A stretch of 64,000 nt of DNA from Psammoneis japonica (lineage: Eukaryota), in assembly GCA_008632985.1 (NCBI GenBank), contig QPGO01000002.1:744001-808000 (forward strand), written 5' to 3'. Position numbers and translations under genes: made by a program. Positions 19,515-61,569 of the stretch are shown piece after piece (position 1 is the stretch's first letter; each line of letters opens with the position of its first letter). The notes under the pieces are model-generated. The model did not search any database. It was not told the origin of the DNA and worked only from the letters and a program-made list of their open reading frames with translations.

Positions 19515-22378
<2,864 letters not shown>

Positions 22379-22539: not shown

Positions 22540-24611
22540 TTATTCTGGCTTTGTGTATATCAAATCCATACTTTCCACGTGCATCTTTTTCGAAAAGTGT
22601 TTGCTGCTTTCATCATCATCCTTGTCATTATCAAGTTTGATAATCTTTTTGGTCGTATTGAGTGGAGACGATGGCCCAACACCATCCGACATGCCCATGA
22701 CCTCGTCCTCGTCTTGGCGTGCATTTTCCCAATTGTGTTTGCATTGCGCCAAGTGCCGCTTACAATCGTCAATGGTCCCTTGTGGATTCAACAACATCCA
22801 CTTGATTTGTTCTTCCAAATAAATGCCAACTTGAGGTCCGCTTGGCAAATCGAGTAATTTGATCAATTCCTTGCCATTCAAGAGTGGTTTCATTTTCCAA
22901 CACAAGTCTAATTTCATTTCTTGCATGATTGCATGATAGACGGTACAAGATATCTGTAGAATGGATTCTCGTTCCGAAACATTTGTGTTTTCCGACTTGT
23001 CAAACTCTCTCAACAGGGTGATCGTTGTCAGCAAGAGACTTGTGACCCACAATTCCTTGATGGATCGCAATACGACACCCGCCTCGAGCCGAAATGGCTG
23101 GCTGGACGACAAAGTACCTGCATGTGGTTGTTTCGTTCCAACATGAGTTTGGCGTTGCGAAGCAAATAGGTCATTTTATCCACGGTATCCAGCACAGTCG
23201 TGACTCGAACGACATCTTTGGTTTTGAATTGAATGCCGTCCCGAATCATGTACTTGACGACACTCTGTCTCCTGCCCTTGTGGTCTGTATAGGAAAGGTG
23301 TCGAAAGGGCAAGACAAAGGTACATATATGCAAGAGACGTGTATCGACTGCACTCCTTTCTGTGCTACCAGCTGTTAGTGCTGCTGCTGCTGCTGCTTCG
23401 TCGGAATTGCTCTTGCGTGCTGCCATGTCTTCTTGATGCTTGTCATACACAGTAGGCAACAATTTTAACATCTCACACGATTCTTCCCATGCCATTTCTC
23501 TCTTGTGCGAGAGTTCCTCATGATTACCAACATACGGTTCTCCCAGTATTGTACCCACAATGGAATCATTGTTGGGAACAATAAACACACTCCCGGCAAG
23601 CTTTAAATGAAATATTGTTTGCAGTGCCTTGTGTGGCTTGGCACCTTTACCCGTCAACATACCCTCCAGTTCTTTGCCCACCCGTTGTCGGCTCACCTTG
23701 ACATGAAGCGACTTGTGCACCTCGGTGGAAACACACGCTTGCTCGAGTGCATCATCCAAGTCGAGATTGTACCGTACGGCAAAGCGAATGGCTCGCAACA
23801 CACGAAGGGGATCGTCATGAAAGGTCGTCATGGGATCCAGCGGCGTTACGAGAACACCCCGTTTCAAATCGGCAATACCCCGCTGTGTCCAGTCTTCGAC
23901 AAGTCTTGTTCTTAGATTAAAGAATAAGGCATTCAATGTAAAATCCCGTCGCTGCGCATCGTCCAGTGGCGTTCCAAAGGTGGTGGTGGGAATCCGCGAA
24001 TGGCTCTCGTATGATTCATTTCCACGCAAATTGGTAAAGTCAACCTCGACATGATGCACCACCATGGTGGCAGTCTCCAAGTGTTTCGATTGAGACGGAT
24101 TCGCCTTGATGACACCCATCTTACCCACGGCACTCTTATCTCCAACAATATCGTTTCGTCCCAATTTCTGTTTGAGATATTCTTGTACCAGCGTCGCAAA
24201 GTCTTTGCCCGTCAAACAGTCCACGGCTAAATCGACATCGTGACTGTACCGTCCCATGATTTTATCACGAACCCAACCACCGGCAATCCGAATCTCGACG
24301 TGACGGGCGGAAATGTCCGGCAACACGATTTCACCACGTTCAAACGCGTTGGCCGTCGACACCAAAACGTCAATGAGATGCTCTTCGTCTTGATCCAAAC
24401 ATAATACAACGGCTCCATCTTTTTCTGATGCTGTTGTTGTCGTTTGTTGTTGTTGTTGAGGTGAGCCTACAATCACACGTGTCGGTACAGAAACCGTCTC
24501 CTGACTTGGAGGAGGAGGAGGAGGAGGAGGTGTAGTTCCGTTTTGATTCGCCATGGTGCTGTGCGTCTGAGATCTGAGATGCTGTGATGCGTTGAGATGG
24601 CGGCTTCGCAT
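22540..24611 (-). CDS. CCA1: Class II tRNA nucleotidyltransferase (CCA-adding enzyme); 1-nt slip at ~23131; start codon uncertain (24611 or 24554)
   Basis: RIAGGWVRDK..DVD, NPSQSKHLETA, FGTPLDDAQRRDFTLNALF, DDPLRVLRAIRF, KVSRQRVGKE; C-terminal KPLLNG..GPQVG. Confidence 0.88.
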
Positions 24612-25351
24612 CAGTCGCGACAAGTGGCGAGAGGTGACAGACAGACGAGACGTGTGCGTGCTTTTTACGCATGCAGCAGCGCCTGCGGGTGCGGAGAGAT
24701 GCGCCCGCGCCGCCACAATGACGATGCGTCTTCAAGTCTGTTGTTGTGCTGCAGAGATGACAGCAAACAGCAATTGCTAAACCCAAGAACCAATGCGAAT
24801 GCAGAATGCTTCTGTTTTTTCTGCTTTTGTCTCTGTGGTCTCTGGATCGCTGGAGGAAGTCTTTTTTTTTGCTGCACAACTGACACAAAGTGCTGCTGTG
24901 CTGCACTCTCAACACTGCTGTTGATGTCAGTGCACATGATGGCCTCTTTCCCTTTGCTGGACATTTTGGCAAAACAGCTCACTTGACATGTTTGTTTGCT
25001 CTGGGCCCACACAAATGTTGTCATCAACACCTGAAAAATGCAGAATGTGCATGTTTGCTTGTGATGATTGTGTGGCATGAATGGAAACACCAGAGCCGCA
25101 CGCAGCACGCTCTCTCTCAAAGATCATGCCCTGCTGCTGGCTGGCCACCCACCAGCATGTTTTGTGCACTCCAGAAACATGCCAGGAATGTGACTTTTCC
25201 TTGCAAGCCTGGGACACCTGCTGCACACCACCAGCTGGTTTTCCTGACTGAGCGCATGAGCCCGCGTCATTTTGTGCAGTGCACACCACCTGTTTTTTCC
25301 AGCACAGGGGTGAGGAAACAAAGGATGCCAGAGCATGGTTGAGCAGCTTTG

Positions 25352-25461
25352 GCAACAACAACAGCAACAACAGCAACAATGGCAACAATGGCAAAAACAG
25401 CAACAACAGGAGCAACAACAGCAACAACAACAGCAACAACAACAGCAACAACAGCAACAAC
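25352..25461 (+). repeat. Imperfect (CAA/CAG)n microsatellite
   Basis: caacaacaacagcaacaacagcaacaatggc...; a shorter counterpart sits at 35458-35488. Confidence 0.85.
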
Positions 25462-27305
25462 ATTTTCTCTGTCCTCGGTTGGTGTCTCTGCATGGTTGCT
25501 GCAGCTGTGGTTTGTTGATCAGAACATTGGACAGATGCCAGCAAAGACTGGGCTTTCAACAAGCAGCTGGCCTGCACAGCTCTCAAGCTCAATGATGGGA
25601 AATGGAGCTTGCTTGTTGCAGCGGGTCTAACACAAATGAGAGTTTCAAAAATGGAGGTGGTTCTTTGTTCAGTTTTCTGGCACCCTCTTCCTCCTCCTCT
25701 CCTCCCCCAACTTTTGATCAACCTTGGTTGAGACAATTTCTCTCTGACATCTGACAAAAACAACAAATGCCACTCAACATGATGGCATTTCTTTCTGGCT
25801 GCCACAACAACAAACAACCAGCTCTGTTGAGAGCCAATCTCCTTTTTTGTGTGTGCATTGTCATTGTTGCTCTGTGCTGCCCACATCGAAGCATGTGCAC
25901 CCACAACAGCAGACCACTCAACATTTGATGCAATGCCCCTCACCTGCCCTGCTCCTTGCTCCTGGCCTCCAGCATGCACACAAAGTGGCTTGAAAAAGTC
26001 ATGGCTGCTTGCTCTAATTGGTCAAGTCAATGGATGCTGAAAAGGGTGCCAAAGCACATTTTTGCCATGGGACAAATTGCCCATTCACTGCCAGATGAGA
26101 AGAACACTGTTGAGTGCTGCTGCCATGTCTTGCTTGAGCTTGTGCTTGTTGCTGGAGAAGACCTTTGCTGGTTGCTGTTGCAAGAATGTGAAAGGAAGAA
26201 GTTGACATCACATGCTGACCCACGCACAATTGACGCTGCTGCCTCTGCTGTTGGACCTCTCTGAGCCATGCTGCAGCGACAAGAAAATTGGACAAAATGC
26301 AAACACTGTGCCACCGGACCCTTGTTGTGTGCATCATGGGCCTGGATGCTGGTGCCTTGGATGTTGTTGTTGCTGTTGTGTGTCCGCACATTGGGCAGTT
26401 GCTTGATGACAAAAGCTGTGCTGTGCAAAGTGAAAGGCCAAATCTGTGCTGTGCAAAGAAGCTCTGAGACCTTGTTGTTGTCATGGCTGGAACCAAAGGC
26501 TCTCATCCTCCACAAAGCAGACAGAAAGCAAACCAGCCAAATCTTTAAGATCAGCTCTGTCACCCAAGTGAAGGAGGCCTTTCATTCTCAAAATGACCAG
26601 CAAAAGGCAAGCTGGCAACAAAATGTTGTTGGAGCAGGAATGGCAAGTTGCACTCTCTTGCAAAACACAAAGAATGAGCTTGCAGAACAGCAACAATGTC
26701 CTCCAAATGCCACACAATGAACACCATCTGCCTCTGCTTTGGCCTGAGCGGCAATGCCAGGCAACCAAAATGCCAAAAAAGCCATGTCTGGCTTTCCCAT
26801 GGGACATGTGGTTGCAAAGATTGAAAGCATCCAGGCTGGCTTTGCCAGGTGCTTGAGAATGGCTTCTCAAGCACCCCTGGTGTGTCGTTCAGCTTCAAGC
26901 TGCATTCCTGAGCAAAGACTCTGTTTGGCGGGTCAAAAACAAGGTCCCAGCACAACTTTCTGTCTTTGCTTTTGTTGTGATTGACCTCATCCAATGCCCC
27001 AGTGACGGCATCAACAAATCCATCAATGGAGTTGCCACGGGTGGACTGATCAACCCCTGACTGTGAGGTGTCAACATTCAGCAATCAACAGACTGCCTCA
27101 ATTGAGTGAAAGGCATCCAAGCCAATCCTTGCAGTCTGGAACAAATGCAACAATGTGGCCACATGCTTGCAAACTTTGTGCCAAGTTCATCATGGAGTGC
27201 AGCTTGCCAATTGATGAGTGTTTTGGTCCATGAAGAGCACATTTTTTGTCTCCTGTGCTGGTTGCAGTTGATGCAAAATTCCATGATTTCCAATCATTGC
27301 TTCTT

Positions 27306-29522
27306 TGTGTGAGCAAGAGGTGTGAGACATGTGTGCAAGACATGTGTGAAATGTGTGCAAGGTGTTTGCAACATGTGTGCAAAATGTTTGAAAGGTGTGT
27401 GGGAGGTTTGAGCAAGACATGTGCAAGTTGTTTGTGGGGCCTGTGCAAAATGTGTGTGCAAAGTGTTTTTGCATGTGTGCAAGGCATGTGCAAGGTGTGT
27501 GTGAAATGTGTTCAAGGTGTGTGCAAGACATGTGCAAAGTGTTTGAAAGGTGTGTGGGAGATGTGTGCAACATGTGTGTGTGTGTGTCTGTGGTGTTTGT
27601 GAGATCTGTGCAAGATGTGTGTGTGACACATTTGCAAGTTGTTTGTGAGATGTGGCAAGATGTGTGTGAGGTGTTTGCAAGACATGTGCAAGTTGTGAGT
27701 TGTGTTCAAGATGTGCATGAGATGTTTGCGAGATGTTTGCAAGATGTGTGTGATGCACTTGTGTGCAAGGTGTTTGCAAGATGATGTGTGCCAGAGGATG
27801 TGTGAGTGTGTGTGAATTGCACAACAGATGTGTGTGGGGTGTTTGGGGGGATGTGTTTGAGCCATGTGCAAGGTGTTTGAGAGATGTGTGCACAATGTGT
27901 GCAAAACATGTGTGTGGTGCATTTGCAAGATGTGTGCATGATGTGTGCAAAATGTGTGTGAGGTGTTTCAGGGGCATTTGGGAGATGTGCACAAGACCTT
28001 TGCAGTGTGTTTGCAAGATGTTTGCATGATGACATCTGTGACGTGTTTTCAAGATGTGTGCAAAGTGCTTGCAAAATGTCTGCTTGACACACACAAGATG
28101 TGTGTCAAATGTGTGTGAGGTGTTTGCAAGATGTGCGCAAATTGTTTGCACAGTGTGCAGGAGTTGTGCATGAGGCATGTGCCAGGTGTTTGCAAGATCA
28201 TGTGCGCAGGTTTTCTGCAAGATGTTTGCCAGATGTGTGCAAGGCGTGTGTTTGAAATGTGTGCAAGATGCACTTGAAACACACAACTTGTGCACAGGGC
28301 ATTTGAGGGATGCACATGAGACCTTTGCAATGTGCTTTCAAGGTGTGTGCATGATGATGTGTGTGACATGTGTGTGGTGTGTTTGCAAGATGTGTGCAAG
28401 GTGTGCTTTCAAGATGTCTGCATGCAAGATGTGTGTGCAAGATGTGTGTCACATGTTTGCAAGGTGTTTGCAAGGTGTGTGCAAATTGTTTGTGAGGTGT
28501 GCAGGAGTTTTGAGGTGTGTGTGAGCTTGTGAGATGCAGGCAAGATTTCTGCAAGATGTGCACCAGATTTTTGTTCAAGAGGTGTGTGAGATGTTTGCAG
28601 AGTGTGCAAGATGTGTGTTGGGTGTGTTTGGGAAATGTGTGCACAAGACACATTCAAGGTGTTTGTGAGATGTGTGCAAGATGTGTGCAACACAAGTGCA
28701 ACATGTTTGTGAGATGTGTGCAAGATGAGGTGCTTGCAAGATGTGCGCAAACTGTGTGCAAGAGTTGTGCACAAGGCATGTGTGAGGCCTTTTGCAAGTT
28801 CTGCTTGCACAGTGTGCATGACACATGTGTGAGGTGTGAAAGATGTGTGCAACATGTGTGTGAGGTGTTTGGGAGATGTGTGTGAAATGTGTGTGAGATG
28901 TGTGCAAAATGTTTGAAAGGTGTGCGGGGGACATGTGCAAGATGTGTGTGAGGTGTTTGGGAGGTGTTTGCAAGTTGTGTGCAAGGTGCTGTGTGTGATG
29001 TGTTTGCAAGATGTGTGCAAGACATGATGTGTGAGGTGTGCAAGCATTGTGCATGATTCATGTGTGAGGTGTTTGCAAAAAGTGTGCAAGATGCATGTGT
29101 GAGGTGTTTGCAAGAGATGTGTGTGCAAGATGTGCATGAAATGTGTGCAAGACATGTCATGGGAGATGTGTGTGCGTGATGTGGCACAACATTTGAAAGA
29201 TGTGTGAGATGTGCACAAGACATGTCTGAGGTGTTTGTGAGATGTGCACAAGACATGTGCAAAGCAAGTGTGGGGGGCTTGGGAGATGTGTGTGAGGCAT
29301 GAGTGAGTTGTTTGCAAGATGTGTGCAAGACATGTGGGAGGGGTGTGTGTGTGTGTGCAATGTGTGAAAAATGTTTGAGAGGTGTGTGAGATGTGCACAA
29401 GACATGCCTGAGGTGTTTGCATGCTGTGTGAAGCAAGTGTGCTGTGCTTGGGAGATGTGTGCGAGGCGCGAGTGAGTTGTTTGCAAGATGTGTTCAAAGT
29501 GCATGTGAGGAGTTTGCAAGAC
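27306..29522. repeat. TG-rich complex satellite block 1 (~11-13-bp monomer GTGTG[CA/TG]AGAT)
   Basis: Continuous gtgtgcaagat / gtgtgtgagat / gtttgcaaggt variants. Confidence 0.92.
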
Positions 29523-31992
29523 CACATGGGCTCTCCAGGAAATCATTGCATTTGCAGCCTGGCGTGGGTCATGATGAGCACAAATCATGTCAGCCAGCAA
29601 GAGGTCAATTGAAAAAAAAAACAGCAGGTTTGGTGCTGCAATGACTTCACAGAGAAGAAGACACTCTTTTTGCATGCACAAAATGTGGGTCAAAACAAAA
29701 AATGTCACTTTCTGGATGAAGCACAGGATCACACCAACAAGCTTCAGAATGAAAAACCTGATCACACATCTTTTTAAATGTGCGGCACATTTTGAAAAAT
29801 GCACTCCCGGGCACTCTTTTTCAAGTGCAGAAATTGTGCTTGACTCTTCCTCACAGGAATGTTTTGTGCATGTCTGGGTTTGCATTTTGTGAGCTGTCCT
29901 TTGGCACACAGAAAAAGTGTGTGTGCACACAGATCCTTGCTTGGACAGAAAGAACCAGCACTCTGGTTGGCTCAATGAATTCCACACAAAATGTCTGGCA
30001 TTGTTGGGCACAGGAGAGGGGCCAGGAAGCATCAACATTGCCCCTGACAGAGCTGGTCTTGGATCAGCAGCCCAAACACATGGGCAATCACTGTGGTTTC
30101 CCACCCAGTCACAGAAACTTTTCAGAGTGCTTCACACACAACAAGCAGTCTTCTGCAAGCTTGGTGACACAGAGTTTGCAGATGGAAATGACTTTCATCC
30201 AAACCAGAGCCAGAGTGCTCAGGGCAGTCAGCTCTGACAGCCTCAAGCTTGTTGGTGATCTGAAATGCCATGTTGAACAATGTTTGGCATGACCCAAGTG
30301 TGTCATCCCCAAACTCTGCACACATCTTCAAGTCGTGCCACAGCCCAGTGTCTGCTTGGACTCAACAGCATCTCTTGCCCAACCTGAAAAAGATCATCTG
30401 AGTTGCTGGCTTGAGAGTTGAAAGATGTGCAGCAGTTGTCATGATGTCTTTTGTTCATCAATGTCAAAAGATCATTGCAAAACACAGGCTGCTGTGGACA
30501 GACTCTTGAAGGCAATGCATTCACACTGAATCTTTTGAGGTTGGCAACATTCTGCTGCATGCAAGAAGGTGCCCTGCCAAAGACAGATGAAACAATGCCA
30601 AACCTCCTTCAAATTCTGGGTCTTGATGCTCATGGTTTCAAGCTTGGCAATCTAAAAGACTTTGTTTGGCAAGGCATGGTGCAACAGAACACATCATCCC
30701 CGAGCTCTGTGCTGGCATCTGCAAGCCCCACCATGTCTGAATGTCTGCTCAGATGCGACAATGCCTTGATCCCAAAGAAGGTCTGCCAGCTGATTGTCCG
30801 CCATTGGCTTGAATTGAGAGATGTGCAGCAGTTGTCATTGTCTTCTTGTTCATGTTGAAAAATTGTTGCAAACCACAAGCCACTCTGGACAGACCTCATG
30901 AAGCAATGCTGTCCAAATCTGTTTGATGTGTTGGCAACATTTTGTGTTGGAGCCATTGTGACTGCCTTGTGAGGCTTCAATTTCACAGAGATCTGTCATT
31001 TCCACTTCATCCCAAAGGGCTCCCTGAAGAGCTGCTCATGCAAGGTGATTTTCTCCTTTGCACATGGAAGCTGGAGGCCATTTGCTTCTACATTGATCTT
31101 CAGAGAGGAAGCACCCAGATGACATCTGCAACACATTGAGCCAAGCTGGATGAGAGTGGGGAACCTGTTCCCACCTTCGAAGGCATCAAGCAACAAAAGA
31201 CAGAACCCTGCTTCATGGGTTGAGACGGAAACAGAGAATTTGTGTGTGCCAGCTCAAGCAAAGATGATGAAGAGAATGAGAGAACAGGTGGCACCACAGA
31301 GATCCAGCTGTGTGCTGATGACGCAATCAAACAAGCCAAAGTGCACCATTGCAAGTGAGTTGAACAGTTTCAGCAAATTTGATTGTCCAGTTGTTGTCAA
31401 AATGCACGCAAGCCTGTCTTGCAAGGTGGAAGGCAAGAACGTTCCCAAAACAGACTGGCCACTTGTGCTCCCTGGTTGGAGAACATGACTCCTTTTAGAA
31501 TTGCAACAATGAAGGTGGATTGGTGCTGTGCTTTTGCACAGATGTGCAATCCCATTGGAAGGAATTGGCTGATTGACGTGCCAACTTGCCTCTGCCGTTT
31601 GATCCTTTGATTCTTGTGACTTTTTTTTCCATGCAGCGAGTGCTGGAAAATCAGATTTGGATTTGCCTCTGCCATTTGATCCTTTGATTCTTGTGACACT
31701 TTGTTCCCCACGCGGCAAGTGCTGGAATCAGATTTGGATTGGAGGTGGTGCAATCCATGTCCGGATGGAGAATGATGCAAGGGATGCTTGTTCCTTGCAT
31801 CTTCAGCATGCCACACATTTGGTCTCAGAGACTGTCACATCAACTTCTTGGGTGTTGTTTCACCCAGGCTCCTCTTGATGTGCCGCGAAGTGATGCGCCA
31901 TGATGAAGAGGCACAGCAGCCAGGACAGCAATTTAGAAAGAGTGCACTGCAACTGTGAACAATGCTTGGATGAGTTGCTTGCTTTGTCGCAA

Positions 31993-32297
31993 CTTTCTGT
32001 GAAACTGCTTGGTGCATGTGAGTGATGAAGGATCATTCCTGCTCTAGAATCAAGGTGCTTGTGTGAATGTTTCTTGAGTCTTCACTTGCTTGCACTGCAG
32101 GTGCAGTCATTTGGAAGTGAGCTCACTGCTGGCAATCTTGTTGATGACATCAAATGTTGAATGGACTGATGTTTTTGGTCTCGGGGGTTCAAGACAACCT
32201 GCAATTGAAAACTCTAGAAACATTCACACAAGTGTCTTGATTCTGGAGTGGGAACGAACCTTTGTCACTCATGCGCGCCAATCAGTTTCACAGAAAA
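31993..32297. repeat. ~95-bp inverted repeat with ~110-bp spacer just upstream of the Penelope-like ORF
   Basis: tttctgtgaaactg...gtgtgaatgtttcttgagtcttcacttg (31993-32088) is the reverse complement of caattgaaaactctagaaacattcacac...cagtttcacagaaa (32202-32297). Confidence 0.9.
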
Positions 32298-32363
32298 GCA
32301 GCACACAGTGTGATGAAAAGCGTCAAATGCATTGGTGGCTCAAGTCTGCAAAAAAGAAAACAA

Positions 32364-34050
32364 GATGGAGCCCGGCGCAGCTTGACTCTCTGACCCCAGT
32401 CCTTCTCTGCCAGTGAAAAACCTGCTTTGTCTGGACTGCAAGAACCCAACTCAAACTGGTGCTTGAAACAGGAACCCCACTGGCAGGAAAGAACAATGCA
32501 GCAAAAGACAATGAAGTGCCAAAAGGAAAAGGAAAAAGGAAATGCCAGCCCCAAGCCTTGAAGACAAGTGGGAAACCATCTGCCAACAGACACAAGAATG
32601 AAGCCAAGAACTGCCACGGAAAAAAAAAGTGGGGATCATGGAGGACAGCACAGAGGCAAGCAAAGAGGAAAGAGAAGCAACAGGCAAAACCAGAGGCAAA
32701 ACTCCTCCACCAAGGAACCATGCTCCCCATCAAAATTGCTGAAAAACAATCCGACCGCTGCTGCATCAGAGTCCATGGTTTCATGCCAAATCCTGACGCC
32801 CCCCTGTGGGAAAATGCAGCAACGGCTGTTGACAAGATGAAAGCCATGGCACACTTCAACCACCTGGACAATGTGTCTTGCCGTGACCTCTGTGCAAAGC
32901 TGCAACCACCGCCTGGCACTGGATTGCTGTAAGAACTTGGACACAAGTTCTGCATAGAATCAAGCACCCCGTTCCAACACAACCACCATGGCACACAACG
33001 CTTCCAGCAAACCATGCATCTGTGGAACTTTGTTGAGAACTCCAAGCTTGCAAACAATGAAGACGGATGCAACCCACACCTGTGCATCCCCTCCAATTTT
33101 GCCCCTCCACAGATTGAAGATGGGGCAACAGAACTTTGAATGATGGACTTTGCAAACAAGACAGACAGAGCCAGTCAAACAGCCAACTGCCAACAACCCT
33201 GCTTTAATTTGATGCCACAGCAGTGCCAAAGACCACAAACATTGCAAAATGACAGACAACTCATCGTGTCCGAGACTCTCACCAAGTCCTTGCCAACTTG
33301 TGATTGCTTGGAAAACTGCCACCAGATGCTGAGCTGTTCACAGTCAATGCAGCAGGAATGTGCAGCAATGTCAATGCCAGCCATGCTCTGGAAACATTCC
33401 ACCAGTGGTTCCTTGAGCACCCTGATGAGATGCAAAAAAACTTCCCAATTGACTTCTTCCTTGCCATGCTGGAAATCATCATGACAAGAAACATCATCCA
33501 GTTTGACAACACCTGCTGGCTCCAAATCAACGGTGCAGCCATGGGTGCCAGTGCAGCCTGCATGTGCACCGCCATGTGCAAGGCTCTCCACGAATGCCAA
33601 AGCATGCTAACCCGACTCAACTTAGACCTGCCCTGTTGTGGATGATTCACAGATGACATGCTTGGTGCATGGACAGGTGGCGAAGGTGAAACATGGGACA
33701 AGTTCAAACACGAACTTAACAACTTTGGCACCTTGGAATGGGAAACCTCCAAGCTCAGTGACCCAGCTGCATTTCTGGATCTTGACATCAAGATGGGAGC
33801 AAACTGGTGCATTGAAACAAGAGCGCACCAGAAGGCCATGAACCTGTGCCTCTACATGCCCCCAAGCTCAACACATCCACCTGGAGTGCTGAGAAGCATT
33901 GTGCATGGAAACCTTTGCACATGTTGGGCACAAAATCCAAACAACAAGGAATGCCAAAAAAACAGTGGCCCAGTTCAGGGCACAGCGGGTTCAGCCAGTT
34001 GGCAGCGGTGTGCTCAAGACCCAAAAACCCAAGAGATGCCCTTGTGTGAA
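32364..34050 (+). mobile_element. Decayed Penelope-like retroelement (reverse transcriptase relic)
   Basis: LPPDAELFTVNAAGMCSNV, LEIIMTRNIIQFDNTCWLQINGAAMGASAAC, WFTDDMLGAW, AFLDLDI, RAHQKAMNLCLYMPPSSTHPPGVLRSIVHG match PLE RT motifs (MYTN, YW.Q..G.AMG, (Y/F).DD, FLD, Y.K...Y....S.HP) with Tyr turned to Cys/His. No GIY-YIG domain seen. Confidence 0.85.
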
Positions 34051-34559
34051 CACCGCTGAAGGAGCCCAACAGGCAGCGTGCTCCAGACATTGTCAAAATG
34101 CTCTCTCATGCACTGGAGCTCTGATTTGGCGAATCCATTGCAATGAGTCACCTCCGGTAAAAAACTCAAACAGGCCACCCACCACGTCACCACGGTGCTG
34201 CGGCTTGTGCCTGTTTTGAGTTTTTTCTGTTTTGTGTTTTGAGTTTGTTCACTTGTGCACTTGCTGCAGCAGAGCATGCTTCCACATCTGGCAGCAGCAG
34301 GAACATCAACTCGCTCTTTCTCAAACACCATTGGAGTTTTTGAGATGGATCTTTCTGATGCTCTTTCAACAACTGCCATGTCAGCTGCAATGACAGCCAT
34401 TGAAAAATGCCGATTTCGAAATTTTCAGCTCGAAAAACAGCCGACAACACTGACGAAGCAAAAGCAAAAGCTCACATCATTGAGCTTTGCATGTCAGGCA
34501 ACTCTTGATGGATTGCTGTTGTGCCAAAGGCTGTCAGTGCATTGGACAACCCCGAAAAC

Positions 34560-34910
34560 AATGCTCTTGGTCTTGATCCAAACACAACAAAATGGCTCCA
34601 TCTTTTTCTTCTGTTGTTGTTTGTTGTTGTTGTTGTTTGTTGTTGAGGTGAACCTCCAATCACACGTGTCAGTGCAGAAACTGTCTCCTGACTTGGAGGA
34701 GGAAGTGCAGCTCCATTTTGATTTGCCATGGTTGGTGGGGTGTGTCTGAGACAATGCTGTGTGGTGCATTGAGATGGCAGCTTCACATCAGTTGTGAGGA
34801 GTGAGTCATCGCAAAAAGTGGCAAGATGTGACAGACAGATGTGTGCATGCTTTTCATGCTCCCAGCAGTGTGTGCAGCATGCAGAGAGATGCTCTGCCCC
34901 GCCACAATGA
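34560..34910 (-). pseudogene. Duplicated, hypermutated 5' fragment of the CCA-adding enzyme gene (homology continues into upstream DNA to ~35765)
   Basis: atgctcttggtcttgatccaaac.. aligns with 24378-24722. It translates as MANQNGAALPPPSQETVSALTRVIGGSPQQQ versus MANQNGTTPPP..SQETVSVPTRVIVGSPQQQ. Confidence 0.9.
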
Positions 34911-35791
34911 CAGTGCATCCATTGCGCTGCAGCAAGACAACAGCCAGTGGCAATTGCCAAACCCAACAACCTGTGCGAGTGCGGAACACTTCTGTTTTTT
35001 TCTGTTTCTGTTTCTGCAGTCTCTGGGTTGCTGGAGAGGAGTTCTTTTTTTTTTCCACTGCGCCACACAGCCAACACCACAAAGTGCTGTGCTGCACTCC
35101 TGCCAGTGTTGTCAATGCACAAGACCTCTTCCCCTTTGGACATTTTGACAAAACAGCTCACTTGGCATGTTTGCTCTGGGCCCACACAAATTTGTCATCA
35201 ATGCCTGAAAAACGCAGAATGTGGCTGGCCACCCACCTGCATGTTTTGTGCACAGAAACATGCCAGGAAAGTGACTTCCTTGCAAGCCTGGTGCACCCGC
35301 TTGCACAGTCAACTGTGTGCGCATTTTGCACACCAGCTTGTTTTCCTGAGCGCATGACTCTCTGGGTCATTTTGTGCAGTGTGCGCCACTTGTTTTTCTC
35401 CAGTCAGTGCAGGGGTGAGGAAACTAAGGATGCCAGAGCACAGCTGAGCAGCTTTGGCGACAACAACAACAACGACAACAAAGCAACATTTTCTCTGTCC
35501 TCAGTGGTCATGTCTGCACCATGATTGCTGCAGCTGTGGTTTGTTGGTCAGAACATCAGCCAGATGCCAGCAAAGGCTGGGCTTTCAGGAAACAGCTGGC
35601 CAGCGCAACTCTCAAATGCCCAATGATGGAAAATGGAGTTTGTTTGTTGCAGCGGGTCCAAAGCAAATGAGAGTTTCAAAAATGGAGATGGCTCTTTGTT
35701 CAGTTTTCCAGCACCCTCCTCCTCTTCTCCTCCCCCTCCCCCAGCTCTTGACCAACCTTGGTTGATGACCAGCTCTGTTGTGAGCAAATCT

Positions 35792-35796
<5 letters not shown>

Positions 35797-35830
<34 letters not shown>

Positions 35831-36127
35831 NNNNNNNNNNNNNNNNNNNNNNNNNNNNNNNNNNNNNNNNNNNNNNNNNNNNNNNNNNNNNNNNNNNNNN
35901 NNNNNNNNNNNNNNNNNNNNNNNNNNNNNNNNNNNNNNNNNNNNNNNNNNNNNNNNNNNNNNNNNNNNNNNNNNNNNNNNNNNNNNNNNNNNNNNNNNNN
36001 NNNNNNNNNNNNNNNNNNNNNNNNNNNNNNNNNNNNNNNNNNNNNNNNNNNNNNNNNNNNNNNNNNNNNNNNNNNNNNNNNNNNNNNNNNNNNNNNNNNN
36101 NNNNNNNNNNNNNNNNNNNNNNNNNNN
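35797..36127. other. (TG)n run followed by an assembly gap (Ns at 35831-36127)
   Basis: Seen directly. Confidence 0.99.
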
Positions 36128-36989
36128 GCGCACAGCAGCTCGTCAAAGTCGCGGCTGCTTGCTCTGGTTGGTCAAGTTCATGGATGCTGAAAAGGGCACC
36201 ACAGCACATTTTTGCCATGGACCCATTGCCCATTCACTGCCAGATGAGCGCTGCTGCCATGCCTTGCTTGAGCTTGTGCTTGTTGCTGCAGAAGACGTTT
36301 GCTGGTTGCTGCTGCTGCAACAGTGTGAAAGGAAGAAGTTGACATCTGCCAACCCACACACACAGTTGACACTGTTGCCTCTGCTGTTGGACCTCTCTGA
36401 GCCATGCTGCAGTGACAAGAAAATTGGACAAAATGCAAACACCGCTGTGCCGTTGGACCCCCTTGTTGTGTGCATCATGGGCCTGGATGCTGGTGCCTTG
36501 AATGTTGTTGTTGCTGTTGTGTGTCCACACATTGGGCAGTTGCTTGATGACAAAAGCTGTGCTGTGCAAAGTGAAAGGCCAAATCTGCAATGTGCCAAGA
36601 GGCTCTGAGACCTTGTTGTTGCCATGGCTGGAGACCAAAGGCTCTCATCCTCCATGCAGCAGACAGAAAGCAAGCTCACTCAAATCTTTGAGAGCAGCTC
36701 TGTCGCCCAAATGGAGGAGGCCTGTCATTCTCAGAATGACCAGCAAGGCAAGCTGGCAACAAAATGTTGTTGGAGCAGGAATGGCAAGTTGCACTCTCTT
36801 GCAAAACACAAAGAATGAGCTTGCAGAACCAGCAACAATGTCCTCCAAATGCCACACAATGAACACCATCTGCCTCTGCTTTGGCCTGAGCGGCAATGCC
36901 AGGCATCCAAAACACCAAAAAAGCAATGTCTGGCTTTCCCATGGGACATGTGGTTGCAAAGATTGAAAGCATCCAGGCTGGCTTTGCAA

Positions 36990-38376
36990 GGTTCAATGTT
37001 CGGAAAAATGCACATTGCTTGTGCACCTGTGTTGGAAGTTGGGGTGGCCAGAGTGTGAAATCAAAGCCCCAGCCATTGGCTGCATCTTCTTGTGGAAAGG
37101 CCACTGAGCACTTTCAAGACACACAATGTCATCTTTGGACATTGCCAAAACGGGGGTGCAGGCACACAAGACAGGCTGCTTGCCATGTCATTCAAAGGGC
37201 TCAGGTGTGTGCAAGGAAGATGTTGTTGAGTACATCATCATCAAACCAGCCTTGCTCGCTGCACATGGTTCTGAAAGTGGGCTTGACATTCTCTTGTGAT
37301 CCACAAAGTGGGCTTGAATTGCCCAGACATCTTTGTTGGCTTTCAGAGTCAAGACAATGGGGCAGGGAAATTGGAGTTTTTTGGAGTGAAAAGTGTGCTC
37401 TTCTCCATTGTGCGCAGCTCTGGGAGTTTGTGAGAAGTGAAAACTGACCCTGCATTGACCTGGGCCAGTGGGACATTTGCATCTGGCAGGCATGAAACCT
37501 TCTCCTTTTGAAACTGGTCAATCACAACAAGCTCAAAAAGTGGTCCTGAAACATTGTTTGCAACAAGTGGGTCAGTGAAAACACACACAAGAGGTTTGCC
37601 TCATGTTTTTCCACACAGCCTGTCAAAGAACTGTCCAAAAAACAAGGTGCAGCTGGCGACATGCACACTGGAAAGACCAGCTTCAGAAAACCTCTTGATG
37701 GAAAACTGAGCATTTCTTGCTTGTTGCAGATCTTGGACAAATGACCAGGGCCAGCATCGCAAATGCTCAGGAGACAGTGAACCACAGACACTGTGATCTC
37801 TGCCCTTTGACTCTTGTCACATTCTTCCACAGGCTTGCGCATGCATGCAAGGACAGCAGCAACTGGCTTGTCTTTGCACTCTTCTTGAAATGGTGCCTTG
37901 TTCAGCAGCTCTGAAACTTGCAGCAGGCATTTCCCAGCTGCAGCAACAAGCTTGTTCCAAACTTTGTCATCAAAATCCTTTCGCTCTGGCCTCCACACTG
38001 ATTTCCTTGTCCCTGATTTCAAGTGGGTGCACTCACAGCCATTGAATCATTTGCTGTTTTCTTTGCAGGACAGACCATTGTCTGTGGATGCCAAGATCAC
38101 AGCGTGGGCACAGCACACATTTTTGTTCAGCTGCTTCATCCATGAGAATGGCTTTTCAAGCACCCTTGGTGTGTCTTTCACCTTCAAGCTGTGTTTCTGA
38201 GCAAAGCCTCTGTTGAGCTGGTCAAAAACAAGGTCCCAGCACAACTTTCTGTCTTTGCTTTTGTTGTGGTTGACCTCATTCAATGCCCCGCCAGTGATGG
38301 CATCAACAAATCCACCAATGGAGTTGCCATGGGTGGACTGATCAACCCATGATTGTGAGGTGTCAACATTCAGCAA
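36990..38376 (-). pseudogene. Decayed unidentified coding relic (partial copies at 46456-47099, 55417-56060, 26853-27084)
   Basis: Protein-like frames (DGFVDAITGALDEVN..WDLVFDQLNRGF; KDFDDKVWNKLVAAAGK; QGWFDDDVLNNIF) interrupted by stops and shifts. Confidence 0.35.
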
Positions 38377-38625
38377 TCAACAGACTGCCTCAATCAAGTG
38401 AAAGGCATCCAGCCAACCCTCACAGTCTCAAACAAATGCAACAATGTGGTCTCATGCTTGCAAACTTTGTGCCAAGTTCATCATGGAGTGCAGCTTGCCA
38501 ATGCCATGTGTGTCACACACTGTGAGTCCAAGATGAGTGTTTTGGTCCATGAAGAGCACATGTTTTGTCTCCTGTGCTGGTTGCAGTTGATGCAAAATTC
38601 CATGATTTCCAATCATTGCTTCTTT

Positions 38626-41600
38626 GTGTGAGCAAGAGGTGTGAGACATGTGTGCAAGACATGTGTGAAATGTGTGCAAGGTGTTTGCAACATGTGTGCA
38701 AAATGTTTGAAAGGTGTGTGGGAGGTTTGAGCAAGACACAAGCAAGTTGTTTGTGGGGCCTGTGCAAAATGTGTGTGCAAAGTGTTTTTGCATGTGTGCA
38801 AGGCATGTGCAAGGCATGTGTGAAATGTGTTCAAGGTGTGTGCAAGATGTGTGAAAAGTGTTTGAAAGGTGTGTGGGAGATGTGTGCAACACGTGTGTGT
38901 GTCTCTGTGGTGTTTGTGAGATCTGTGCAAGACGTGTGTGTGACACATTTGCAAGTTGTTTGTGAGATGTGGCAAGATGTGTGTGAGGTGTTTGCAAGAC
39001 ATGTGCAAGGTGTGAGTTGTGCTCAAGATGTGCGTGAGACATTTGCAAGATGTCTGCAAGATGTGTGTGATGCATTTGTGCAGTGTGTTTGCCAGATGTG
39101 TGTGAGATGTGTGCAAGGTGTTTGCAAGATGATGTGTGCCAGAGGATGTGTGAGTGCATGTGAGTTGCACAACAGATGTGTGTGGGTCATTGGGGGGGAT
39201 GTGTTTGAGCCATGTGCAAGGTGTTTGGGAGATGTGTGCACAATGTGTGCCAAACATGTGTGTCGTGTGTTTGCAAGATGCATGCAATGTGCTTGCAAGA
39301 GGTGTGCATGATGTGTGCAAGATGTGTGTGAGGTGTTTGTGGGTCATTTGGGAGATGTGCGCAAGACCTTTGCAGTGTGTTTGCAAGATGTTTGCATGAT
39401 GACATCTGTGACGTGTTTTCAAGATGTGTGCAAAGTGCTTGCAAAATGTCTGCTTGACACATGCAAGATGAGTGTCAAATGTGTGCAAGGTGTTTGCAAG
39501 GTGTGTGCAAATTGTTTGTGAGGTGTGAAGGAGTTTTGAGGTGTGCATGAGCTTGTGAGATGTGGGAAAGTTGGGTCATGATTGGCACAAATCATGTCAG
39601 CCACAACTTGTGCACAGGGCATTTGAAGGATGCACATGAGACCTTTGCAATGTGCTTTCAAGGTGTGTGCATGATGATGTGTGTGTCACGTGTGTGGTGT
39701 GTTTGCAAGATGTGTGCAAGGTGTGCTTTCAAGATGTCTGCATGCAAGATGTGTGTGCAAGATGTGTGTCAAATGTGTGCAAGGTGTTTGCAAGGTGTGC
39801 AGGAGTTTTGAGGTGTGTGTGTGAGCTTGTGAGATGTGGGCAAGTTGTCTGCAAGATGTGTGCCAGATTTTTGTGCAAGAGGTGCATGTGAAATGTGTGT
39901 GAGATGTTGTTTGCAGAGTGTGCGAGATGTGTGTTGGTTGTGTTTTGGAAATGTGTGCACAAGACACATTCAAAAAGTGTGTGTGAGAGATGTGTGCATG
40001 ATGTGTGCAACACAAGTGCAACGTGTTTGTGAGATGTGTGTAAGATGAGGTGCCTGCAAGATGTGTGCAAATTGTGTGCAAGAGTTGTGCACAAGGCGTG
40101 TGTGAGGCCTTTTGCAAGTTCTGCTTGCATCAGTGTGCATGACACATGTGTGAGGTGTGAAAGATGTGTGCAACATGTGTGTGAGGTGTTTGGGAGATGT
40201 GTCGGAGATGTGTGTGAAGTGTGTGTGAGATGTGTGCAAAATGTTTGAAAGGTGTGCGGGGGACATGTGCAAGATGTGTGTGAGGTGTTTGGGAGGTGTT
40301 TGCAAGTTGTGTGCAAGGTGCTGTGTGTGATGTGTTTGCAAGATGTGTGCAAGACATGATGTGTGAGGTGTGCAAGTGTTGTGCGTGATTCATGTGTGAG
40401 GTGTTTGCAAAAAGTGTGCAAGATGCATGTGTGAGGTGTTTGCAAGAGATGTGTGTGCAAGATGTGCATGAGATGTGTGCAAGACATGTCATGGGAGATG
40501 TGTGTGTGTGATGTGGTGAAACATTTGAAAGGTGTGTGAGATGTGCACAAGACATGTCTGAGGTGTTTGTGAGATGTGTGCAAGACATGTGCAAAGCAAG
40601 TGTGGGGTGATTGGGAGATGTGTGTGAGGTGTGAGTGAGTTGTTTGCAAGATGTGTTTAAGACATGTGGGAGATGTGTGTGTGTGTGCGATGTTTGAAAA
40701 ATGTTTGAAAGGTGTGCGAGATGTGCGCAAGACTTGTCTGAGGTGTTTGTGAGATGTGTGCAAGAAGACATGTGTGAAGCAAGTGTGCTGTGCTTGGGAG
40801 ATGTGTGCAAGGCATGAGCAAGTTGTTTCCAAGATGTGTTCAAAGTGCATGTGAGGTGTTTGCAAGACCACATGGGCTCTCCAGGAAATCATTGCATTTG
40901 CAGCCTGGCGTGGATCATGATTGGCACAAATCATGTCAGCCAGCAAGGGGTCAATTGAAAAAAATGCAGCAGGTTTGGTGCTGCAATGACTTCACAGAGA
41001 AGAAGACACTCTTTTTGCATGCACAAAAGATGTGTGCATGATGTGTGCAAGATGTGTGTGAGGTGTTTGCGGGTCATTTGGGAGATGTGTGCAAGACCTT
41101 TGCAGCACTTTTGCAAGATGTTTGCATGATGACATCTGTGACATGTTTTCAAGATGTGTGCAAAGTGCTTGCAAAATGTCTGCTTGGCACATGCAAGATG
41201 TGTGTCAAATGTGTGCAAGGTGTTTGCAAGGTGTGCACAAATTGTTTGGGAGGTTTGCAGGAGTTTTGAGGTGTGTGTGTGAGCTTGTGAGATGTGGGCA
41301 AGTTGTCTGCAAGATGTGTGCCAGATTTTTGTGCAAGAGGTCATGTGTGTGAAATGTGTGTGAGATGTTCACAGAGTGTGCAAGATGTGTGTCAGGGGTG
41401 TTTTGGAAATGTGCGCACAAGACACACTCAAGGTGTTTGTGAGATGTGTGCATGATGTGTGCAACACAAGTGCAGCGTGTTTGTGAGATGTGTGCAAGAT
41501 GAGGTGCTTGCAAGATGTGTGCAAATTGTGTGCAAGAGTTGTGCGCAAGGCATGTGTGAGGCCTTTTACAAGTTCTGCTTGCACAGAGTGCATGACGTGT

Positions 41601-43438
41601 GAAAGATGTGCACAACATGTGTGTGAGGTGTTTGGGAGATGTGTGTGAGATGTGTGTGAAATGTGTGGGAGATGTGTGTGAGGTGTGTGCAACATGTTTG
41701 AAAGGTGTGGAGGACATGTGCAAGATGTGTGTGAGGTGCTTGGGAGGTGTTTGCAAGTTGCGCACAAGGTGCTGCATGTGATGTGTTTGCAAGATGTGTG
41801 CAAAACATGATGTCTGAGGTGTGCAAGCATTGTGCATGAGACATGTGTGAGGTGTTTGCAAAAAGTGTGCAAGATGCATGTGTGAGGTGTTTGCAAGAGG
41901 TGTGTGCAAGATGTGCATGAGATGTGTGCAAGACATGTCACAGGAGATGTGTGTGTGCGATGTGTGAAAAATGTTTGAAAGGTGTGTGAGATGTGCACAA
42001 GACATGTCTGAGGTGTTTGTGAGATGTGCCCAAGACATGTGCAAAGCAAGTGTGGGGTGCATGGGAGATGTGTGTGAGGCATGTGTGAGTTGTTTGCAAG
42101 ATGTGTTCAAAGTGCATGTGAGGTGTTTGCAAGACCACATGGGCTCTCCAGGAAATCGCTGCATTTGCAGCCTGGCATGGGTCATGATTGGCACAAATCA
42201 TGTCAGCCACAACTTGTGCACAGGGCATTTGAAGGATGCACATGAGACCTTTGCAATGTGCTTTCAAGGTGTGTGCATGTTGATGTGTGTGTCACGTGTG
42301 TGGTGTGTTTGCAAGATGTGTGCAAGGTGTGCTTTCAAGATGTCTGCATGCAAGATGTGTGTGCAAGATGTGTGTCACATGTTTGCAAGGTGTGTGCAAA
42401 TTGTTTGTGAGGTGTGCAGGAGTTTTGAGGTGTGTGTGAGCTTGTGAGATGCAGGCAAGATTTCTGCAAGATGTGCACCAGATTTTTGTTCAAGAAGTGT
42501 GTGAGATGTTCGCAGAGTGTGCAAGATGTGTGTTGGGTGTGTTTGGGAAATGTGCGCCCAAGACACATTCAAGGTGTTTGTGAGACGTGTGCATGATGTG
42601 TGCAACACAAGTGCAATGTGTTTGTGAGATGTGTGCAAGATGAGGTGCTTGCAAGATGTGTGCAAATTGTGTGCAAGAGTTGTGCACAAGGCATGTGTGA
42701 GGCCTTTTGCAAGTTCTGCTTGCACAGCGTGCATGACACATGTGTGAGGTGTGAAAGATGTGTGCAACATGTGTGTGAGGTGTTTGGGAGATGTGTGTGA
42801 AATGTGTGTGAGATGTGTGCAAAATGTTTAAAAGGTGTGCGGGGGACATGTGCAAGATGTGTGTGAGGTGTTTGGGAGGTGTTTGCAAGTTGTGTGCAAG
42901 GTTCTGTGTGTGACATGTTTGCAAGATGTGTGCAAGACATGATGTGTGAGGTGTGCAAGCACAGTGCGTGAGACATGTGTGAGGTGTTTGCAAAAAGTGT
43001 GCAAGATGCATGTGTGAGGTGTTTGCAAGAGATGTGTGTGCAAGATGTGCATGAAATGTGTGCAAGACATGTCATGGGAGATGTGTGTGCGTGATGTGGC
43101 ACAACATTTGAAAGATGTGTGAGATGTGCACAAGACATGTCTGAGGTGTTTGTGAGATGTGCACAAGACATGTGCAAAGCAAGTGTGGGGGGCTTGGGAG
43201 ATGTGTGTGAGGCGTGAGTGAGTTGTTTGCAAGATGTGTGCAAGACATGTGGGAGGGGTGTGTGTGTGTGTGCAATGTGTGAAAAATGTTTGAGAGGTGT
43301 GTGAGATGTGCACAAGACATGCCTGAGGTGTTTGCATGCTGTGTGAAGCAAGTGTGCTGTGCTTGGGAGATGTGTGCGAGGCGTGAGTGAGTTGTTTGCA
43401 AGATGTGTTCAAAGTGCATGTGAGGAGTTTGCAAGACC
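38626..43438. repeat. TG-rich satellite block 2 (internally rearranged, with short non-satellite inserts)
   Basis: Same monomer as block 1; 42.2-43.4 kb matches 28.3-29.5 kb. Confidence 0.92.
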
Positions 43439-46400
43439 ACATGGGCTCTCCAGGAAATCATTGCATTTGCAGCCTGGCGTGGGTCATGATGAGCACAAAT
43501 CATGTCAGCCAGCAAGAGGTCAATTGAAAAAAAAAACAGCAGGTTTGGTGCTGCAATGACTTCACAGAGAAGAAGACACTCTTTTTGCATGCACAAAATG
43601 TGGGTCAAAACAAAAAATGTCACTTTCTGGATGAAGCACAGGATCACACCAACAAGCTTCAGAATGAAAAACCTGATCACACATCTTTTTAAATGTGCGG
43701 CACATTTTGAAAAATGCACTCCCGGGCACTCTTTTTCAAGTGCAGAAATTGTGCTTGACTCTTCCTCACAGGAATGTTTTGTGCATGTCTGGGTTTGCAT
43801 TTTGTGAGCTGTCCTTTGGCACACAGAAAAAGTGTGTGTGCACACAGATCCTTGCTTGGACAGAAAGAACCAGCACTCTGGTTGGCTCAATGAATTCCAC
43901 ACAAAATGTCTGGCATTGTTGGGCACAGGAGAGGGGCCAGGAAGCATCAACATTGCCCCTGACAGAGCTGGTCTTGGATCAGCAGCCCAAACACATGGGC
44001 AATCACTGTGGTTTCCCACCCAGTCACAGAAACTTTTCAGAGTGCTTCACACACAACAAGCAGTCTTCTGCAAGCTTGGTGACACAGAGTTTGCAGATGG
44101 AAATGACTTTCATCCAAACCAGAGCCAGAGTGCTCAGGGCAGTCAGCTCTGACAGCCTCAAGCTTGTTGGTGATCTGAAATGCCATGTTGAACAATGTTT
44201 GGCATGACCCAAGTGTGTCATCCCCAAACTCTGCACACATCTTCAAGTCGTGCCACAGCCCAGTGTCTGCTTGGACTCAACAGCATCTCTTGCCCAACCT
44301 GAAAAAGATCATCTGAGTTGCTGGCTTGAGAGTTGAAAGATGTGCAGCAGTTGTCATGATGTCTTTTGTTCATCAATGTCAAAAGATCATTGCAAAACAC
44401 AGGCTGCTGTGGACAGACTCTTGAAGGCAATGCATTCACACTGAATCTTTTGAGGTTGGCAACATTCTGCTGCATGCAAGAAGGTGCCCTGCCAAAGACA
44501 GATGAAACAATGCCAAACCTCCTTCAAATTCTGGGTCTTGATGCTCATGGTTTCAAGCTTGGCAATCTAAAAGACTTTGTTTGGCAAGGCATGGTGCAAC
44601 AGAACACATCATCCCCGAGCTCTGTGCTGGCATCTGCAAGCCCCACCATGTCTGAATGTCTGCTCAGATGCGACAATGCCTTGATCCCAAAGAAGGTCTG
44701 CCAGCTGATTGTCCGCCATTGGCTTGAATTGAGAGATGTGCAGCAGTTGTCATTGTCTTCTTGTTCATGTTGAAAAATTGTTGCAAACCACAAGCCACTC
44801 TGGACAGACCTCATGAAGCAATGCTGTCCAAATCTGTTTGATGTGTTGGCAACATTTTGTGCTGGAGCCATTGTGACTGCCTTGTGAGGCTTCAATTTCA
44901 CAGAGATCTGTCATTTCCACTTCATCCCAAAGGGCTCCCTGAAGAGCTGCTCATGCAAGGTGATTTTCTCCTTTGCACATGGAAGCTGGAGGCCATTTGC
45001 TTCTACATTGATCTTCAGAGAGGAAGCACCCAGATGACATCTGCAACACATTGAGCCAAGCTGGATGAGAGTGGGGAACCTGTTCCCACCTTCGAAGGCA
45101 TCAAGCAACAAAAGACAGAACCCTGCTTCATGGGTTGAGACAGAAACAGAGAATTTGTGTGTGCCAGCTTGAGCAAAGATGATGAAGAGAACGAAAGAAA
45201 AGGTTGCACCACAGAGATCCAGCTGTGTGCTGATGATGCAATCAAACAAGCCAAAGCACACCATTGCAAGTGAGTTGAACAGTTTCAGCAAATTTGATTG
45301 TCCAGTTGTTGTTGAAATGCAAGCAAGCCTGTCTTGCAAGGTGGAAGGCAAGAATGTCCCCAAAACACACATGCTGCTTGTGCTCCCCGGTTGGAACATG
45401 ACTCCTTCTAGAATTGCAACAACAAAGGTGGATTGGCACTGTGCTTTTGCACAGATGTGCAATGCCATTGGAAGGAATTGGCTGATTGACATGCCAACTC
45501 GCCTCTGCTGTTTGATCCTTCAATTCTTGTGACTTTTTCCCCATGTGGCAAGTGCCAGAATCAGATTTGGATTTGGGGTGCAACATGTGTCTGGATGGAG
45601 AATGACGCAAGGGATGTTTGTTCCTTGCATCTTCAGCACGCCACACATTTGGTCTTGGAGAAGACTGTCACATCAACTTCTTGGGTGTTGTTTTACCCAG
45701 GCTCCTCTCAATGTGCCATGAAGTGATGTGCCGCAATGAAGAGGCGCAGCCAGGACATCAATTTAGAAAAAGAGCGCACTGCAACTGTGTGAACAATGGA
45801 GCTTCTTGGACAAGTTGCTTGCTTTGTTGCAACTTTCTGTGAAACTGCTTGGTGCAAGTGAGTGATGAAGGTTCATTCCCACACTAGAATCAAGACACTT
45901 GTGTGAATGTTTCTAGAGTTTTCAATTGTCCAGTCCTTCTCTGCCAGCAGTGAAAAACCTGCTTTGTCTGGACTGCAAGAACCCAACTCAAACTGGTCCT
46001 CGAAACAGGAACCCCACTGGCACAAAACAATGATGCAGCAAAAGACAATGAAGTGCCAAAAGGAAAAGGAAAGTGGAAATGCCAGCCCCAAGCCTTGAAG
46101 ATGAGTGGGAAACCATCTGCCAACAGACACAAGAATGAAGCCAAGAACTGCCATGGAAAAAGAAATGGGAATCATGGAGGACAGCACAGAGGCAAGCAAA
46201 GAGGAAAGAGAAGCAACAGGCAAAACCAGAGGCAAAACTCCTCCACCAAGGCACCATGCTCCCCATCAAAATTGCCAAAAAAAATCCAATCGCTGCTGCA
46301 TCAGAGTCCATGGTTTCATGCCAAATCCTGACGCCCCCCCTGTGGGAAAATGCAGCAATGGCTGTTGGCAAGATGAAAGCCATGGCACACTTCAACCACC

Positions 46401-49504: not shown

Positions 49505-49719
49505 GGAGTCGCCTCAGAGATGCATTCTTGAATGACTTTGCAAAATTTTGCAATGTCCGCATTGCAACATTGTTGGCCAATTGGACTGCACAAAATTTAG
49601 CCTGTTGCCCATCACACATGTTGGCAATGAATGATTGCTCTCTGCAAACGAATGAGCTCATTTGCACAGCTTTGCAGCTTTCGACAACAAGAAAGTCATT
49701 GCAGTGTTTATCGCCAAAT

Positions 49720-49857
49720 AACTTTCAACAACTTTTTGTTGAAAGTCGTCACTTTCAACACTTTTTGTTGAAAGACGTAACTTTCAACAACTTTTCGTTG
49801 AAACACGCAACTTTCAACACCTTTTTGTTGAAAGACGTAACTTTCAACAACTTCAAC
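49720..49857. repeat. 30-bp tandem array of GTTGAAAG-N6-CTTTCAAC palindromes (left)
   Basis: About 4.5 units read directly. Confidence 0.9.
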
Positions 49858-57475: not shown

Positions 57476-57519
<44 letters not shown>

Positions 57520-61526: not shown

Positions 61527-61569
61527 AAATAAGCACCACAAAGGGGACTTCAGACTTGAGGCATTTCCT

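Follow-up and report, generated by a model that had tools for sequence, protein, structure and literature searches.

A duplicated fragment of a working diatom gene records a local mutation process that has converted the dinucleotides CG and TA to TG or CA. The fragment lies within a compositional island of about 36 kb in a 64,000-nucleotide stretch of the Psammoneis japonica genome, here called the window (GenBank assembly GCA_008632985.1, contig QPGO01000002.1, positions 744,001 to 808,000 of the forward strand; all coordinates are those of the window). The gene from which it was copied stands 10 kb away, outside the island. Since the relic has been converted and the gene has not, an unusual local mutation process has made the composition of the island. 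The alignments demonstrate a duplication, a direction of change, two dinucleotide contexts, CG and TA, in which it occurs, a dependence on position, and no strand runs along the relic. We consider it likely that the border of the island was duplicated into the interior of a repeat array, that local and cumulative mutation of CG and TA to TG or CA followed there, and that the original was spared because it remained outside.

The CG- and TA-poor domain (approximately 24741..61282, recognized from dinucleotide counts and with its edges taken from alignments) fills the gap between the promoter of the gene for the CCA-adding enzyme and the 3' side of a gene with helicase-associated (HA) domains (61573..62619, minus strand; PF03457, E=5.8e-47), the stop codon of which is towards the island. 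Measured over windows of 2 kb, the odds ratio of CG falls from 0.82–1.11 to mostly 0.10–0.32 in the island and that of TA from 0.29–0.72 to 0.00–0.07, with TG and CA up to approximately 2–3. Between 24760 and 61250 (36,194 non-N bases) there are 366 CG against 1934 expected and 85 TA against 2555 expected, together with 5448 TG (2696 expected) and 3690 CA (1833 expected). The ratios of observed to expected are thus 0.19 for CG and 0.03 for TA, compared with flank values of 0.98 and 0.54. The transition at either edge is abrupt when viewed in bins of 200 bp. On the left, 19 CG are present in the bin 24601-24800 and one in the next; on the right, the bin 61001-61200 contains one CG and one TA and the next contains six of each. 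The left edge, at about 24741, is approximately 185 bp upstream of the ATG of the CCA gene, and the right edge, at about 61283, is approximately 290 bp beyond the stop codon of the HA-domain gene.

By self-BLAST, the island is made up of four head-to-tail copies of a unit of 6–9 kb: copy A (26854..32918), copy B (37730-46454), copy C (46454-55415) and copy D (55415-61529). Tandem Repeats Finder shows that every copy includes approximately 2.2 kb of a degenerate satellite with an 11-bp unit, TGTGTGCAAGA. The unit copies are 96.8–98.1% identical at aligned bases and have most of their TG and CA states in common. In contigs derived from one public sequencing run the unit has a depth of 170–300, compared with approximately 63–68 for single-copy parts, indicating about four copies; since this is the number present in the window, the unit forms a local array and is not a dispersed family. 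Of the 126 stop-to-stop ORFs of at least 110 aa between 26.5 and 64 kb, the 91 that lie outside the satellites of copies B to D were compared with Pfam, and no transposon domain was found in them. Pfam matches within the island were weak and below the cut-off only (CFAI_FIMAC_N, Pentapeptide_4 and PT), and tRNA and Rfam scans of the window gave 0 and 0 matches. The satellite blocks, at 27308-29521 and near 38.6–43.4, 47.3–49.5 and 56.3–58.6 kb, are G/T-rich, with a GC skew of up to +0.54, and TG is far commoner than CA in them, which may reflect either their original composition or mutation of one strand. Along approximately 630 bp (31600-32226 and 60657-61282) copies A and D show hardly any differences, the remainder of the pair being more different, which suggests recent gene conversion between units.

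Is such a composition the result of mutation, or has it been inherited? Composition by itself cannot tell a region that has been mutated from one that is CG- and TA-free by descent. A relic can make this distinction, because its ancestral sequence survives in a nearby working gene and is confirmed by orthologues. The gene in question, which encodes the CCA-adding enzyme (tRNA nucleotidyltransferase; 22540..24554, minus strand), comprises two ORFs, 23028-24554 and 22540-23112. The first of these, 508 aa from the ATG at 24552-24554, has 1271 protein matches at E<=0.001, with PF01743 in all of them. The closest of the 1271 homologues has 57% protein identity, and the matches from named organisms are diatoms throughout, Seminavis, Cyclotella, Skeletonema, Thalassiosira and Cylindrotheca among them, which marks the window as nuclear DNA of a diatom. 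The second ORF is the conserved C-terminus and aligns with the C-termini of the homologues. At 23095-23112 (minus strand), where both ORFs meet, there is a frame shift that is possibly a GT..AG interval of 20 nt or 41 nt, or else an assembly indel. The part of the gene that is duplicated in the island (24378..24740, minus strand) consists of codons 1-59 (24378-24554) and approximately 186 bp upstream. It sits outside the CG- and TA-poor domain and has 26 CG and 6 TA in the ungapped alignment. A BLAST search of 22000-26000 against the window found no copy of the gene downstream of codon 59.

The diverged copy of this segment occupies 34561-34925, on the minus strand. The relic of codons 1-59, identified by alignment and translation, is at 34561..34729, and the relic of the upstream region, identified by alignment, is at 34730..34925. 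The ATG has been kept (34727-34729), 12 bp have been deleted from a proline run, and the reading frame is broken by a shift within a (CAA/ACA)n tract, translations in two different frames reading MANQNGAALPPPSQETVSALTRVIGGSPQQQ and EEKDGAILLCLDQDQEH. The preliminary description, made from the sequence alone, had reported a piece of the gene at 34560..34910. The copy is real, yet it is not an insert of 350 bp, as homology continues to 36992 in a 2.4-kb duplicate of the border of the island. This whole duplicate (34561..36992), delimited by BLAST segments, is a second copy of the left border, 24378-26850, the source segment containing codons 1-59, about 186 bp of upstream sequence of normal composition and 2 kb of the island edge. 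The first pair of segments, 24378-25049 and 34561-35223, is 73.9% identical over 700 columns (E=1.7e-87). It is followed by 25138-25376 with 35222-35481, by 25434-25731 with 35461-35765 and, past an assembly gap of 297 N within the duplicate (35831-36127), by 25981-26850 with 36131-36992 at 89% in self-BLAST.

Since the relic carries the promoter side of the gene and 2 kb of flank, in order, it is a segmental DNA duplicate, a dead copy made at the level of DNA and not a retro-copy. A processed pseudogene and a fragment captured by a transposon were both rejected on the same grounds, the upstream region and 2-kb flank with their order kept. A simple tandem duplication of 24378-34560 is not supported, there being no second copy of 32919-34560 after copy B. 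Directly to the left of the relic, within the island, 34410-34460 has six CG in approximately 60 bp and no TA. The depth bin 34270-34664 has a value of 486, compared with approximately 65 for single-copy sequence; either some of this sequence has further copies elsewhere or the depth is inflated by the adjoining TTG tract.

Gene and relic were compared over the part in which the gene copy lies outside the island (24378-24760), which gives 354 aligned bases. The 60 mismatches comprise 48 transitions and 12 transversions. In place of the 26 CG of the gene, the relic has TG at 11, CA at 11, and GG and CC at one each, with CG kept at two; the six TA have become CA four times, TG once and TC once. 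This leaves the relic with no TA and three CG. In the upstream part, 16 of the 18 CG have been changed, seven to TG and nine to CA. Transitions are found at 22 of 54 CG positions (Fisher p=3.7e-9) and at 5 of 12 TA positions (p=0.0017), in each case against 21 of 288 other positions. Mismatches from CG or TA in the gene to TG or CA in the relic number 27, and there is one in the reverse direction (binomial p=2.2e-7). The other 32 of the 60 differences fit neither direction and are ordinary background changes outside this signature. Changes from A:T to G:C make up one quarter of all differences, with 10 T>C and 5 A>G.

The pairwise alignment that the preliminary description had proposed therefore displays the bias it predicted, and the three pairs of strings quoted there were all located (24397-24413 and 34580-34596, 24481-24498 and 34668-34685, 24531-24552 and 34706-34727). 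Its statement that both TG and CA are produced also holds. The relic has TG 12 times and CA 15 times, arranged in 15 runs where 14.3 are expected (z=0.27), so that there are no strand runs. The further suggestion, that the process acts on any DNA in the domain and not only on transposable elements, is correct in that DNA derived from a gene has been converted; the 91 ORFs compared with Pfam gave no evidence that the island consists of transposable elements.

The direction of change was polarised with outgroups, namely 120 diatom orthologues among the matches listed, which were aligned to the gene and scored at signature changes that alter a residue. As these outgroups are distant, with protein identity of at most 57%, the polarisation is at the amino-acid level only. 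At V23, a TA site where GTA of the gene corresponds to GCA of the relic, 50 of 107 outgroups have V and 3 of 107 have A. At P24, a CG site (CCG in the gene, CTG in the relic), P is present in 67 of 109 and L in 1 of 109, and at V49, also a CG site (GTT after GCC in the gene, ATT in the relic), V is present in 59 of 113 and I in 21 of 113. E57Q, which is a transversion within CG, has E in 113 of 113 outgroups and Q in 0 of 113. The columns of V29, V50 and T7-P9 are variable or gapped and uninformative on polarity, and the remaining quoted signature sites are synonymous. That the gene represents the ancestral state, as first proposed, is borne out by the agreement of the outgroups with the gene at V23, P24 and V49 and by the broken frame of the relic. 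At every testable site, these being the three signature sites at conserved residues, agreement of the outgroups with the relic, named beforehand as the contrary outcome, is absent.

The right edge of the island provides a second control. The last 247 bp of copy D (61283..61529) are outside the domain and are paralogous to 32227-32474 inside it. The outside sequence keeps 10 TA and 10 CG. In the inside paralogue all 10 TA are TG, and seven of the 10 CG sites have changed, six to TG and one to CA, with three kept. Copies B and C (45930-46011 and 54891-54972) likewise have TG at 5 of 5 TA over 79 common bases. This control agrees with the relic and indicates that the process depends on position and not on homology, and that it is cumulative. 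These two border pieces are the only ones within the island that are polarised. In 32227-32474, 16 of the 17 signature changes read as C>T or A>G on the plus strand, which simple symmetric decay does not predict. This one-strand pattern hints that both reactions can act together on one strand; the relic is without such a bias.

On this evidence, a 36-kb intergenic tandem-repeat array would have received, in its interior, a DNA-level segmental duplicate of its own left border. Codons 1-59 of the CCA gene, the promoter region of that gene and 2 kb of the array edge would have made up the border that was copied. Within the array, CG and TA, both of which are self-complementary, would be turned into TG or CA by a local and cumulative process that acts on single sites and, in the relic, on one strand or the other. 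The source copy would have been spared through its location outside the domain, the boundary of which is approximately 185 bp upstream of the ATG. The domain itself may be silenced, cytosine-methylated chromatin between two transcribed genes. Here CG would become TG or CA through deamination of 5-methylcytosine, and TA would become TG or CA through a second process, from A:T to G:C, acting in the same domain. Judged by the changes seen, deamination of 5-methylcytosine is the likely cause of the CG loss, and it is textbook knowledge that silenced repeats lose CG. We know of no chemistry that removes TA as efficiently; the candidates are deamination of adenine at TpA, a mutagenic modified thymine and a context-bound bias of mismatch repair. 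One modified base, 5-hydroxymethyluracil, prefers TpA in dinoflagellates. Literature titles and abstracts yielded no report of this base in diatoms, and the term TpA does not occur in a paper on it (PMC6313786). Repeats are CG-methylated in diatoms, in one model species by DNMT5a, according to another report (PMC9998398).

Could the repeats themselves have triggered the mutation? A homology-triggered, premeiotic mutator resembling fungal RIP but with a new dinucleotide specificity, for which the domain would be no more than the sum of the repeated sequences, would account for an island that consists of repeats, and RIP does share with the island a transition hypermutation of repeated, non-genic DNA that has a dinucleotide context and leaves a compositional island (PMC2621366). 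The 16 of 17 changes on one strand in 32227-32474 recall the strand-biased tracts of RIP, and genes for RID-related DNMT4 are reported from many diatoms (PMC9998398). Despite this we judge it improbable. RIP mutates both copies of a duplicate, whereas here the partners outside the domain are unaffected: the gene copy, including its approximately 186 bp of non-coding upstream sequence, despite a homologue 10 kb away and with 27 changes against 1, and the end of copy D despite three inside paralogues. Two stretches that are single in the window, 32919-34560 and 36993-37729, are as depleted as the rest of the island, although a depth of 185–485 across 32690-34664 suggests that parts are repeated elsewhere. 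Conversely, tandem duplicates in the normal flank (4112-6039, 88% identical, and 9078-10522, 98–99%) lie in 2-kb windows with CG ratios of 0.82–1.07, so that duplication alone does not confer the signature. The relic has no strand runs. Finally, RIP makes changes only from C:G to T:A, mostly CpA to TpA, and thereby creates TA (PMC2621366); the island has changes from A:T to G:C and its TA has been destroyed, which is the opposite. Taken together, these points favour a process bound to the domain over one triggered by homology.

It is also conceivable that nothing was converted at all and that the island owes its composition to ancestry or selection, CG and TA having always been missing from the repeats or not being tolerated there, and the relic having come to resemble them by chance or conversion. 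The 11-bp satellite unit is TG-rich by nature and most TG and CA states are common to the repeat units. We nevertheless regard this as very improbable: the relic aligns base for base with a gene whose CG and TA the outgroups show to be the older state, the CG and TA steps are precisely where the single transitions fall, and the relic has no similarity to the repeat units, hence no donor for conversion. Equally hard to credit is an assembly or sequencing artefact restricted to the region. The 297-N gap does fall within the duplicate, and the only public run that contains this sequence may be the source of the assembly itself. However, contigs derived from its reads reproduce 24541-25349 at the gene edge and 34652-35707 in the relic with 0–1 differences each, both at the single-copy depth of approximately 63–68, and to our knowledge no library artefact converts CG and TA alone within sharp borders.

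A different possibility, which we rather doubt without thinking it far-fetched, concerns the agent and not the location: a mutator targeted to the chromatin domain that deaminates two bases, the C of CpG and the A of TpA. Such a process of genome defence or heterochromatin would have no described counterpart, and 32227-32474 would be its single-stranded footprint. Either change would then give TG on the edited strand, and TpA would be removed at least as fast as methyl-CpG decays. Three other mechanisms were rejected. WA mutagenesis of the polymerase-eta type as the sole cause was discarded since the island shows no depletion of AA (1.30, with 1.20 in the flanks) or of TT (1.04, with 1.16 in the flanks), and GC-biased gene conversion because the G+C of the island is not raised (0.469, against 0.488 in the flanks). 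Editing of retroelement intermediates of the APOBEC/ADAR type was set aside in view of the mixture of TG and CA without runs and of the lack of a reverse transcriptase in the 91 of 126 ORFs.

Among known systems, ordinary methyl-CpG decay has much in common with the process favoured here, that of local mutation within the domain. In both, CG is changed to TG or CA on either strand, at single sites and cumulatively (22 of 26 CG in the relic), and in both the effect is limited to a silenced domain, the silencing of this one being presumed, with sharp borders at genes and with any sequence affected. Unlike methyl-CpG decay, the island also loses TA, and more completely than CG. CG is not the only strongly depleted dinucleotide, since the relic has five of its six TA converted and the right-edge control all 10. 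Deamination of cytosine cannot change TA to TG or CA, which is a change from A:T to G:C, and so another cause is needed. Very-short-patch repair of T:G mismatches reportedly depletes CTAG in E. coli (Bhagwat and McClelland, 1992). This resembles the island in that a TA-containing word is lost by T to C as a side effect of a system for 5-methylcytosine deamination. Unlike the island, it is bacterial, has a tetra- to pentanucleotide context and is modest in size, and there is no sign here of such a repair system. Transcription reportedly goes together with a surplus of C-to-T and A-to-G changes on the strand that is not transcribed (Green et al., 2003). This asymmetry is matched by the joint C>T and A>G changes on the plus strand in 32227-32474 and by the G/T-rich satellite blocks; in contrast to the island it has no specificity for CG and TA and is far weaker, and the relic lacks a strand bias. 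No report of joint conversion of CG and TA to TG and CA was found in the literature, for diatoms or elsewhere. Unlike the loss of CG, the near-total, polarised loss of TA by A:T to G:C changes in the same domain is without a precedent that we could find.

The relic thus indicates that any DNA placed in this domain is rewritten and that TA is a target besides CG. If this is general in the organism, it would provide a mutational clock by which silent chromatin of diatoms could be dated and would point to a new DNA modification, deaminase or repair bias at TpA.

Some features bear on the timing of the changes. Because the units have most of their TG and CA states in common, most of the depletion cannot be dated relative to the amplification of the array. 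Where both copies of the border lie within the island, 744 aligned bases have 98 differences, including 12 dinucleotides at which TG of one copy faces CA of the other, and between repeat units there are 8–24 such double differences per pair. They would be expected if each copy had resolved an old CG or TA independently, or if TG and CA had flipped by way of a short-lived CG or TA. Copy C contains one insertion, or two, at 49505-52674, with palindromic stretches at 50905-51066 and 51913-52054. Three bins of this insertion have 16–19 CG and 5–7 TA per 500 bp, compared with 0–8 and 0–3 in most of the island. The insertion looks younger than its surroundings, and its intermediate content fits gradual decay; if its starting composition was like that of the flanks, TA has been lost faster than CG.

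The dinucleotides that are left in the island have preferred contexts. The 85 residual TA (24790-61250) are mostly YTAR, with CTAA at 18, TTAA at 18, TTAG at 11 and CTAG at 9. RTAY is nearly missing among them, with one GTAC and no ATAT, ATAC or GTAT. The residual CG are enriched in RCGY, which accounts for 132 of 366 in the island and 344 of 1586 in the flanks.
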